This document shows, in pieces, positions 26,177-26,486 of a DNA stretch of 45,030 nucleotides (its first letter is position 1; each line of letters starts with the position of its first letter). Made by a program: the position numbers and the translations under genes. The DNA is from a virus. Taxonomy: Duplodnaviria > Heunggongvirae > Uroviricota > Caudoviricetes. The notes under the pieces were generated by a model. That model had not been told where the DNA came from and ran no database searches. It saw only the letters and a program-made list of their open reading frames with translations. Where the stretch lies: IMG/VR virus record IMGVR_UViG_2851949629_000008, positions 1-45,030 of that record. One strand, 5' to 3'.

Positions 26177-26251
26177 TGGAGCGGGCAGCGGGAATCGAAC
26201 CCGCATCATCAGCTTGGAAGGCTGAGGTAATAGCCATTATACGATGCCCGC
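26177..26251 (-). tRNA. tRNA-Gly (anticodon UCC)
   Basis: Clean cloverleaf, GTTCGATTC T-loop, 3' CCA, anticodon loop CUUCCAA. Confidence 0.7.
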
Positions 26252-26254
26252 ATA

Positions 26255-26330
26255 TGGTGCCGACTACCGGAATCGAACTGGTGACCTACTGATTACAAGT
26301 CAGTTGCTCTACCTACTGAGCTAAGTCGGC
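26255..26330 (-). tRNA. tRNA-Thr (anticodon UGU)
   Basis: 76 nt cloverleaf, anticodon loop CUUGUAA, T-loop TTCGATT, CCA end. Confidence 0.65.
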
Positions 26331-26332
26331 AC

Positions 26333-26409
26333 TGGACCGCCACCGGGGACTCGAACCTCGCACACTCAACTTAAAGGGTTGACGCTCTTTCCTGATGAGC
26401 CAGTGGCGG
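26333..26409 (-). tRNA. tRNA-like gene, anticodon loop CCUUUAA (UUU, Lys-type; C33 is noncanonical)
   Basis: 77 nt, 7-bp acceptor stem, T-loop TTCGAGT, CCA end; one A-C mismatch in the T-stem. Confidence 0.4.
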
Positions 26410-26410
26410 T

Positions 26411-26486
26411 TGGTGGCCCTTGCTGGATTTGAACCAGCGACCTGGCGATTATGAGTCGCTCGCTCTCACCACTGAGCTAAAGGGCC
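26411..26486 (-). tRNA. tRNA with CAU anticodon (Ile2/ileX-like or Met)
   Basis: GGCCCTTTAGCTCAGTGG...CTCATAA...GGTTCAAATCC resembles E. coli ileX as recalled. Confidence 0.7.

Follow-up and report, generated by a model that had tools for sequence, protein, structure and literature searches.

A noncanonical tRNA(UUU) gene, very probably remodelled from Stx-phage argN, in the tRNA array of a lambdoid phage

Phages that encode Shiga toxin (Stx) carry a short tRNA array, ileZ-argN-argO, downstream of the late antiterminator gene Q and upstream of the lysis or stx genes (933W/Sp5 type; for example Stx2a_F349 and phi296). Codon compensation is the classical explanation for these Stx-phage tRNAs. 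Here we analyse a related array in a tailed-phage sequence, IMG/VR record IMGVR_UViG_2851949629_000008 (its positions 1 to 45,030, the whole of which we call the window), where four tRNA genes occupy the same site. The first of them, ileZ, is 100% identical to that of the Stx array and is preceded by the same conserved promoter. The second, which has the anticodon UUU and is the main subject of this work, shares with Stx-phage argN the C1-G72/U73 acceptor end, the D-loop type and the 1-nt spacer, but differs from it in having UUU in place of UCG, C33 in place of U33, and A30:U40 and U27-A43 in the anticodon stem. The window array is thus headed by ileZ and located between Q and the lysis genes, as in Stx phages, but its second gene is not argN(UCG) and its third is not argO(UCU); copies of thrU and glyT stand in place of argO, and the window has no stx gene.

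Three further systems are close to parts of this locus. Burman et al. are said to have found in 2024 that phage T5's tRNA-Lys(UUU) escapes AriB, the nuclease of the PARIS defence system. The UUU gene of the window resembles it as a phage-borne UUU tRNA that departs from the host tRNA at positions needed by AriB (A39, C41 and C16 in T5; G39, U41 and C16 in the window). However, the T5 molecule is a diverged but true tRNA-Lys with U33, A73 and a normal T stem, whereas the window gene combines an Arg body with a Lys anticodon, C33 and U73, resides in a temperate phage and is known from sequence alone. Change of tRNA identity through anticodon substitution, or tRNA gene remoulding, was reportedly observed by Saks et al. 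in 1998 as an alloacceptor anticodon shift in E. coli, and is also known for mitochondrial tRNAs; the anticodon holds the main identity elements for both arginyl-tRNA synthetase (ArgRS; C35) and lysyl-tRNA synthetase (LysRS; U35). The window gene would be a case of the same kind, but in a phage cassette. Finally, unmodified human mitochondrial tRNA-Lys reportedly prefers an extended hairpin until its position 9 is methylated (a finding attributed to Helm et al., 1998). G9 of the window gene likewise extends the acceptor helix, with the difference that this is a thermodynamic prediction for unmodified RNA and that the allele with A9 is unaffected.

The cluster itself is ordinary, and the array and its 'tRNA-Lys' label already stand in hundreds of database records. 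Our literature search, with the classical Stx-phage papers outside its scope, found no account of this prophage tRNA-Lys or of ileZ/argN/argO, and no description of an origin from argN, of a series leading from argN through a U33 Lys form to a C33 Lys form, or of the further anticodon flips reported below.

Conversion of argN into a UUU tRNA gene

Exactly four tRNA genes were called by ARAGORN across the 45 kb of the window, each of them on the minus strand. All four match Rfam family RF00005 with E-values from 4e-14 to 5.6e-06, so the matches are not due to chance; the UUU gene has the lowest score (E = 5.6e-06). An earlier note on this DNA had described a four-tRNA cluster between Q and the holin gene, at the tRNA site of Stx phages, and both statements are borne out: the flanking genes match PF06323 and PF04971, the CAU gene and ileZ are 100% identical, and a homologue of argN, the UUU gene, sits in the same slot. 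To this description we add the minus strand and the A9G change in the window allele of the UUU gene, treated below. ARAGORN also returned the anticodons that had been read by eye, CAU, UUU, UGU and UCC, and the Prokaryotic Genome Annotation Pipeline (PGAP) agrees, labelling the identical DNA of E. coli F9792 as tRNA-Ile, tRNA-Lys, tRNA-Thr and tRNA-Gly.

The UUU gene reads CCGCCAC UG GCUC AUCAGGAAA GAGC G UCAAC C-C-UUU-A-A GUUGA GUGUG CGAGG UUCGAGU CCCCG GUGGCGG U CCA. Its seven-nucleotide anticodon loop, C32-C33-U34-U35-U36-A37-A38, lacks the U33 of a canonical elongator tRNA, one of the two oddities that the earlier note had seen in this gene. It further has an A51·C63 mismatch in the T stem, a U73 discriminator and an encoded CCA. 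Twenty of the 21 pairs of the 7/4/5/5-bp cloverleaf are standard, and U8, A14, G18-G19, the T-loop UUCGA and CCA are all intact, both in the window allele (K1, with G9) and in the common allele (K2, with A9). At 43.1 bits the window allele exceeds the RF00005 gathering score of 29, and by neither loss of structure nor a sub-threshold score does it qualify as a pseudogene.

A search of phage genomes with the 77-nt gene returned near-identical genes annotated as tRNA-Lys in the lambdoid phages PPompW, Evi, 606R7, 689R5 and PhiR47_1, as well as Stx-phage argN genes, for tRNA-Arg, with 80.5-83.1% identity (36 records at 80-90%, and 216 more at 60-80%); identity to Stx-phage argN, tRNA-Arg(UCG), is 83%. 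The two genes occupy the same slot. argN lies 1-9 nt after ileZ and 13 nt before argO, and loci with the spacing ileZ-1-Lys-13-argO exist beside those with ileZ-1-argN-13-argO. Between argN and the UUU gene the anticodon loop shifts from CUUCGAA to CCUUUAA (C35U and G36U in the anticodon), and three stem pairs change on both sides: 7:66 from U-A to C-G, 27:43 from C-G or U·G to U-A, and 30:40 from G-C to A-U. Across 43 alleles of the family, 96.5% of the cells that should be paired are paired, compared with 28.7-53.6% in controls with slid partners, and five pairs vary on both sides. The compensated stem changes argue that the gene went on evolving as a folded tRNA after leaving argN, and was not born dead. 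These comparisons indicate that the UUU gene is argN converted in place to a tRNA with a UUU anticodon, and that the array is a rebuilt version of the Stx-phage ileZ-argN-argO array. We are confident of this part of the explanation, the derivation from argN and the remodelling into a lysine tRNA.

A scan of the collected loci anchored in ileZ, and hence unbiased for the identity of the next gene, revealed a sister allele (locus L166) with the loop C-U-UUU-A-U, and therefore U33, with a fully paired T stem (G51-C63) and with a compensated U4-A69 pair. The sister allele scores 53.2 bits, its cloverleaf is its minimum-free-energy fold, and it is annotated as tRNA-Lys in about 20 complete E. coli genomes, which makes it rarer than the C33 lineage of the window gene (hereafter the K lineage). 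Since this allele shares U33 and G51 with argN, C33 and A51 are derived, having arisen after the anticodon switch. C33 was seen in 13 of the 184 unique tRNAs of the fetched loci, all 13 from the K lineage, and in none of the other 171. The A·C mismatch, to which the earlier note had also pointed, is present but is not special to the UUU gene: the F349 allele of argN has it too, and position 51:63 of the 43 family alleles is occupied by G-C (19 alleles), G·U (12), A·C (11) or A-U (1). We rejected the mismatch as the mark of a pseudogene, because it belongs to a shared polymorphism of this pair.

Other anticodon flips were found in the cassette family, namely UUU to UGU in a K-type gene, UGU to UUU in thrU, UCG to UCU in argN, and an argO-like gene for which ARAGORN called CCG. 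The K-type flip lies in a single genome, E. coli CE0026a (NZ_CP119003.1; locus L160, 401-477), where an argN-derived gene with the anticodon UGU keeps C33 and is annotated as tRNA-Thr, a third identity on the argN scaffold. G3·U70, the main identity element for alanyl-tRNA synthetase, occurs in the acceptor stem of several slot alleles (L002, of PPompW; L005, of Evi; L003, the argN of F349), whereas the window allele has G3-C70. We also considered, and rejected, invariance of the anticodon arm as proof of selection, as our first scan of the collection had been anchored in that very arm and its sample was biased. The ileZ-anchored rescan and the E. coli search contributed a change of anticodon, a decayed copy and a lineage with a deletion, one of each, and the invariance in these sequences is suggestive but not significant.

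Decoding, nuclease escape and decay

ArgRS relies on C35, on U or G at position 36, and on A20, while LysRS reportedly relies on U34-U35-U36 with a smaller contribution from A73 (work ascribed to Tamura et al., 1992). With a UUU anticodon, and thus without C35, lysine charging is expected; judged by these elements, we infer that the product of the UUU gene would be charged by LysRS and not by ArgRS, and would decode AAA and AAG. tRNA-Lys(UUU) is already encoded by six E. coli genes, four of them seen in this analysis, and the late genes of the phage are not rich in lysine codons (see below), so that the benefit of a further gene is likely to lie in quality and not in quantity.

tRNA-Lys(UUU) is a favourite target of the defence nucleases of E. 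coli, UUU being the anticodon of the tRNA attacked by PARIS AriB, PrrC and RloC (PMC12409363, PMC1484252, PMC2610378). On host tRNA-Lys the recognition and cut site of AriB is U36-A-A-U-C|A41, together with U16; cleavage is abolished by U39A and impaired by A41C and U16C, and the tRNA-Lys of T5, with A39, C41 and C16, is resistant (PMC12409363). In our alignment, a comparison of sequences only, host tRNA-Lys has U39, C40, A41 and U16 where the window gene has G39, U40, U41 and C16. The latter reads U36-A-A-G-U-U41 and differs from the host at all three published AriB determinants. PrrC cuts at 33p34, 3′ to U33 (PMC1484252; PMC2610378), and C33 of the UUU gene flanks this scissile bond. A phage tRNA-Lys rescues phages from PrrC170 (PMC11555353), and lambda is also restricted by PARIS (PMC9122126).

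We tentatively favour, over decay, lysine decoding insensitive to nucleases as the selected function of the UUU gene. A lysine decoder with a foreign body would go unrecognised by host nucleases directed at tRNA-Lys: AriB would fail on it through the changed positions 39-41 and 16, C33 at the 33p34 junction would hamper cutting by PrrC and RloC, and after infection or induction the phage would complete late translation with the resistant tRNA. A stronger version, in which the gene is a purpose-built anti-defence tRNA of E. coli and Shigella lambdoid phages, with C33 fixed for poor or no cleavage by PrrC and RloC and with AriB evaded via positions 39-41 and 16, we consider doubtful. If it were true, the array's own promoter would mean that the tRNA is made in lysogens too; in roughly every seventh E. 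coli genome a resident prophage would weaken that genome's tRNA-Lys-based abortive-infection systems; and the cassette would be an evolvable platform, its anticodons switched repeatedly (UCG to UUU to UGU, UGU to UUU, UCG to UCU) to track the attacked tRNA. A related idea, self-immunity of a prophage that encodes both a tRNA nuclease and a resistant tRNA, was rejected, as Pfam and PADLOC scans detected no tRNA nuclease among the unassigned open reading frames (ORFs) at 29.3-35.1 kb.

Several observations weigh against nuclease-insensitive decoding. C33 removes the uridine of the U-turn, A51·C63 lies in the part of the T stem that is read by EF-Tu, and both should lower decoding efficiency. K genes score 43-44 bits in Rfam, compared with 53 for the U33 sister allele. 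The Thr gene of the array is a copy of host thrU and, by its sequence, would be a prime AriB target, so the cassette as a whole could not escape PARIS. The flips of thrU to UUU and of the K-type gene from UUU to UGU are each a single event. For the window allele itself ViennaRNA, whose model leaves modifications and tertiary contacts out of account, predicts that, with G9 in place, positions 8-10 can pair with 63-65, giving a 10-bp acceptor helix that rivals the cloverleaf; the resulting rod-like fold is 8.4 kcal/mol more stable than the cloverleaf, while the corresponding gap is 2.7 kcal/mol for the common A9 allele and 0-4.8 kcal/mol for eight bona fide tRNAs. A9G, by which K1 differs from the common allele, is thus predicted to be probably harmful, and on this folding model the G9 allele of the window is a weaker candidate for counter-defence than the A9 allele. 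K1 is also rare, an exact match to our full 501-nt query being present in 5 genomes; match identity drops to 98.7% within the first sampling step of about 27 ranks. Finally, U33C was without effect on cleavage by the K. lactis gamma-toxin, one tested anticodon nuclease (PMC2275089), and protection by C33 is therefore purely inferred.

The distribution and condition of the copies bear on this too. Of 5426 complete E. coli genomes, 797 carry the K lineage. In a scan with a single genome for each species, the lineage was confined to E. coli, Shigella flexneri and a single Escherichia sp., with no wider taxonomic spread, since the other 29 matches are unrelated chromosomal tRNA genes that share the D and anticodon arms (27 Arg(UCU), one Arg(CCG) and one Gly(UCC)). 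The commonest architecture in IMG/VR is ileZ-K-Thr-Gly, as in the window, while the sister loci of PPompW and Evi retain ileZ-K-argO. Intact alleles are carried by the isolated temperate phages 606R7, 689R5 and PhiR47_1. Damaged copies are frequent, however, and they count against a selected decoder: of 30 copies sampled at even spacing from the 797 E. coli matches, 14 are annotated as tRNA and 16 are not, the latter being mostly of two alleles, one with a 1-nt deletion in the D stem (PPompW type) and one with C8, U4·G69 and U11·G24. About half of the E. coli copies accordingly have D-arm lesions, fall below the Rfam threshold and are skipped by PGAP. Pseudogenes, taken as copies below 29 bits or unannotated, comprise the damaged sister alleles K3, K4 and K5, the copy in ETEC4079 and the copies with a deleted anticodon arm, an arm that is wholly lost in three loci. 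Also on this side of the balance, the K gene is 2-6 times as diverse as its neighbours (in 62 four-gene loci its nucleotide diversity is 0.0217, and that of ileZ, Thr and Gly is 0.0034, 0.010 and 0.012, respectively). The argN lineage is more polymorphic still, with 32 alleles in 90 loci and extra mismatches that include A52·C62 and A6xA67, and high diversity is therefore a trait of the slot, not proof of death. In about 25 Stx-type loci of IMG/VR (for example L171, L165 and L208) the slot after ileZ holds a disrupted pseudo-argN of 90-100 nt in which GAGCAGACGACACGATAACAGGGTTGTTGG replaces the anticodon arm; the acceptor stem, a T-arm-like hairpin and CCA are kept, and neither ARAGORN nor Rfam makes a call.

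From such observations one could argue that the UUU gene, and especially its G9 allele, is a decaying relic, barely functional or not functional at all, that hitch-hikes between ileZ, thrU and glyT in a recombining lysis-module cassette whose slot is under weak constraint. We think this possible but rather unlikely. C33, A51·C63, U73 and the low covariance score fit it, as do the unannotated copies (K3, K4 and decayed ones such as ETEC4079), the three anticodon-arm deletions, the pseudo-argN loci, the diversity of the K gene, the often mismatched argN lineage and the predicted misfolding of K1. It does not readily account for three fully compensated stem substitutions since argN, for the 20 standard pairs and the key positions conserved in K1 and K2, or for the dominance of K2 and its presence in isolated, propagating phages. 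The 17-nt anticodon arm, moreover, shows no point change among the 13 C33 alleles other than UUU to UGU in CE0026a, an argument of limited weight because the sample was partly chosen on that arm. The earlier note had left the choice between a pseudogene and a specialised tRNA; the compensated stems speak against a gene dead on arrival, while the D-arm damage in about half of the E. coli copies and the destabilising A9G keep the pseudogene side of that choice alive.

Two other explanations seem to us less probable. Under ordinary supplementation, which we regard as unlikely, the gene would be a working Lys decoder that adds capacity for lysine-rich, A+T-rich phage genes, with C33 and the mismatch as tolerated noise. 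This is the classical account of Stx-phage tRNAs, and it is in keeping with the early-region prophage genes, whose Lys codons number 68.8 per thousand, compared with 43.8 for a 50-kb region of host housekeeping genes (1.57-fold), and with the enrichment of ATA, ACA and GGA (1.8-6-fold). In the late genes, which adjoin the array, the codon comparison that the earlier note had proposed shows ATA, ACA and GGA about twofold enriched (1.9-, 2.05- and 1.84-fold), but AAA and AAG together reach 47.1 per thousand, 1.08-fold the host value, and we rejected codon supply as the reason for the Lys gene there. Moreover, the host already has its six tRNA-Lys(UUU) genes; AGA and AGG are the most enriched rare codons of the late genes (3.5-5.9-fold), yet their tRNA, argO, has been lost from the window array; and fixation of C33 is not expected in a supplementing tRNA. 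Codon usage thus explains the ileZ, Thr and Gly genes moderately well, but not the Lys gene. Still less probable is a tRNA-shaped element that does not decode, either as RNase P 'punctuation' that frees the 3′ end of ileZ or as a decoy that titrates tRNA-Lys nucleases without being cut. The very tight spacers (1, 2 and 3 nt) would suit such an element, and where badly decayed occupants of the slot have lost the D or anticodon arm, the acceptor stem, a T-arm-like hairpin and CCA are still there; Belukhina et al. (PMC12409363) raise the possibility that overexpressed viral tRNAs compete. However, intact members of the lineage vary less in the anticodon arm than in the acceptor and T arms, whereas a pure processing constraint would predict the reverse, and a decoy would need no anticodon switch with compensated stems.

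To date, counter-defence by phage tRNAs has been demonstrated in large virulent phages (T5 and relatives). If nuclease-insensitive decoding by the UUU gene is true, such counter-defence would extend to the temperate phages most common in E. coli, among them relatives of Stx phages, and the gene would present a natural Arg to Lys identity change on a traceable scaffold of which the argN, U33 Lys and C33 Lys forms are all extant. The allelic series is suited to asking what U33 does in decoding as opposed to recognition by nucleases, and what it is that AriB and PrrC recognise. If decay is true instead, there is a lesson for annotation: the 'tRNA-Lys' of hundreds of RefSeq genomes would be an Arg-derived gene without U33 and of doubtful function.

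One further idea concerned translation of the tail genes. In lambda, tRNA-Gly(UCC) and tRNA-Lys(UUU) decode GGGAAAG, the slippery site of G/GT, and the two tRNAs of the array might have tuned a lambda-type tail-chaperone frameshift. This was rejected, as the end of gpG in the F9792 prophage (95% identical over the stretch) reads CCG GAA AAG TCC TGA and contains no GGGAAAG; Gly(UCC) is therefore not involved in a frameshift there. The Lys tRNA may have a role at the AAG codon of gpG.

Layout of the array and host-derived genes

The features of the locus are collected in Table 1. The gaps within the array are 1 nt (ileZ/UUU), 2 nt (UUU/Thr) and 3 nt (Thr/Gly).

Table 1. The tRNA array and its surroundings in the window (RF00005 gathering score, 29 bits)
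Feature	Position	Strand	Basis and remarks
Late-gene antiterminator Q	26697..27386	-	Pfam PF06323, 308 bits; PGAP 'bacteriophage antitermination protein Q' in near-identical F9792 locus
Candidate late promoter pR', TTGCAA-17 nt-TATATT	26685..26713	-	Promoter scan, 9/12 matches; overlaps Q stop codon
Candidate terminator tR', hairpin CCCGC/GCGGG then T7, bidirectional	26607..26633	-	Read by eye on minus strand; scan reports + strand only
Predicted dedicated sigma-70-type promoter of the tRNA array, TTGCAA-17 nt-TATTAT	26496..26524	-	Promoter scan and sequence reading
tRNA(CAU), ileZ, tRNA-Ile2 type	26411..26486	-	ARAGORN; Rfam 72.5 bits; PGAP tRNA-Ile
Noncanonical tRNA(UUU), allele K1, very probably argN-derived 'Lys'	26333..26409	-	ARAGORN; Rfam 43.1 bits; C33, A51·C63, U73, C1-G72, G9
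tRNA-Thr(UGU)	26255..26330	-	ARAGORN; Rfam 73.8 bits; equals host thrU
tRNA-Gly(UCC)	26177..26251	-	ARAGORN; Rfam 64.9 bits; equals host glyT
3′ trailer of the array, two long hairpins and a 38-codon ORF	25973..26176	-	Read from sequence
Intrinsic terminator ending the tRNA unit, upstream of holin	25945..25972	-	Terminator scan: GCCCGCTTTTGCGGGC then TTTTCTTTTC
Class II (P21 S-type) holin, first lysis gene	25669..25884	-	Pfam PF04971, 121.5 bits

The array promoter ends 9 nt before ileZ, and the space between is filled by the G+C-rich discriminator CCTGCGCCC (26487-26495). The -35 and -10 elements and CCTGCGCCC are kept before ileZ in all classes of the cluster, while the flanks further upstream are unrelated. 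This predicted, conserved promoter and the encoded CCA are the pointers to expression of the UUU gene, and they are indirect. The candidate pR' is so named from the lambdoid architecture. The hairpin of the candidate tR' begins about 50 nt after it and would stop the pR' transcript at about 75 nt, and from its position after Q this pair of signals appears to match the lambdoid pR'/tR' arrangement. Having its own predicted promoter and terminator, the array looks like a self-contained, 'moron'-type unit of promoter, tRNAs and terminator inserted into the late operon, with Q, pR' and tR' upstream of it and the holin gene downstream. In principle such a unit could be expressed both in the lysogen and through Q-dependent read-through. 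Beyond the P21-type holin, genes for a DUF1327 protein and a lysozyme, identified with Pfam, also lie downstream of the array.

The two hairpins of the trailer have perfect stems, one of 11 bp (26125-26170) and one of 15 bp (26045-26117), and the 38-codon ORF (26115-25999, minus strand) starts within the second of them; the trailer (25973-26176) matches no Rfam family at the gathering score. In several related phages the small RNA family STnc100 was found just downstream of the array (L166, 2265-3380, minus strand, four repeats; L004, 1771-1976; L005, 2443-2629; L171, 3592-3782), but the window has no match to it at the gathering score.

The other three tRNA genes are exact copies of known ones. 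The CAU gene, whose tRNA-Ile2-type product reads AUA after lysidine modification, is identical over 76 of 76 bases to ileZ of F349, phi296, PPompW and Evi, and 89.5% identical to host ileX. The Thr(UGU) gene matches K-12 thrU in 76 of 76 bases, and the Gly(UCC) gene matches K-12 glyT in 75 of 75. In the host, thrU and glyT belong to the operon thrU-tyrU-glyT-thrT, and the TAT that separates the two genes in the window equals the first host base after thrU plus the last two bases before glyT. In two loci, L027 and L094, the copy of thrU is still followed by the host spacer TCAAGTCC and by the 5′ half of tyrU (its first ~37 nt), which breaks off just before the anticodon, a fossil of the capture of the host thrU-tyrU-glyT operon. 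Taken together, the identities, the TAT spacer and the tyrU remnants argue that the Thr and Gly genes were captured from the host operon and that tyrU was deleted afterwards. In the window array host-captured thrU and glyT have replaced argO, with ileZ left unchanged.

The phage copy of thrU has itself given rise to a UUU gene. A copy with G35U (UGU to UUU) and A26G is present in five IMG/VR loci (L046, L064, L078, L082 and L118) and in six E. coli genomes, all enterotoxigenic (ETEC), for example NZ_CP024232.1 (O6:H16), and is labelled tRNA-Lys by PGAP. These arrays hold two adjacent 'Lys(UUU)' genes, of which the argN-derived one is damaged (C8, U4·G69, U11·G24 and G73). The thrU change is a second route to a phage-borne UUU tRNA, in a separate lineage, and as a recurrence it speaks for nuclease-insensitive decoding.

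Other features of the window

Outside the array the window carries several recognisable elements. The early region contains the DicF small RNA (72.5 bits; 40445-40496, plus strand), beside dicB/ydfD-type genes as in the Qin prophage. A second Q-type antiterminator, of the unrelated family PF06530 (104 bits; 34600-35127, minus strand), lies about 7 kb upstream of the PF06323 Q, and near it are a split gene for an NA37 nucleoid protein (32237-33377, plus strand) and a 410-aa ORF without a family (33358-34590, plus strand). The sok antitoxin RNA of a hok/sok module was detected with Rfam (82.6 bits; 31898-32053, minus strand), and an IS3-family transposase pair with rve and HTH domains (30558-31927, minus strand) has inserted right next to it or across it. 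The tail-fibre end of the window matches the RNA family IS009 (129 bits; 41-244, minus strand).

The window is a mosaic relative of the F9792 prophage (locus L263) and not the same element, the identity of aligned segments ranging from 99% to 88%. Two early stretches of about 1.1 and 3.7 kb (29102-30240 and 32070-35816) do not align. The tRNA stretch, 26100-26600, is identical in F9792, within a wider aligned segment of 97.5% identity.

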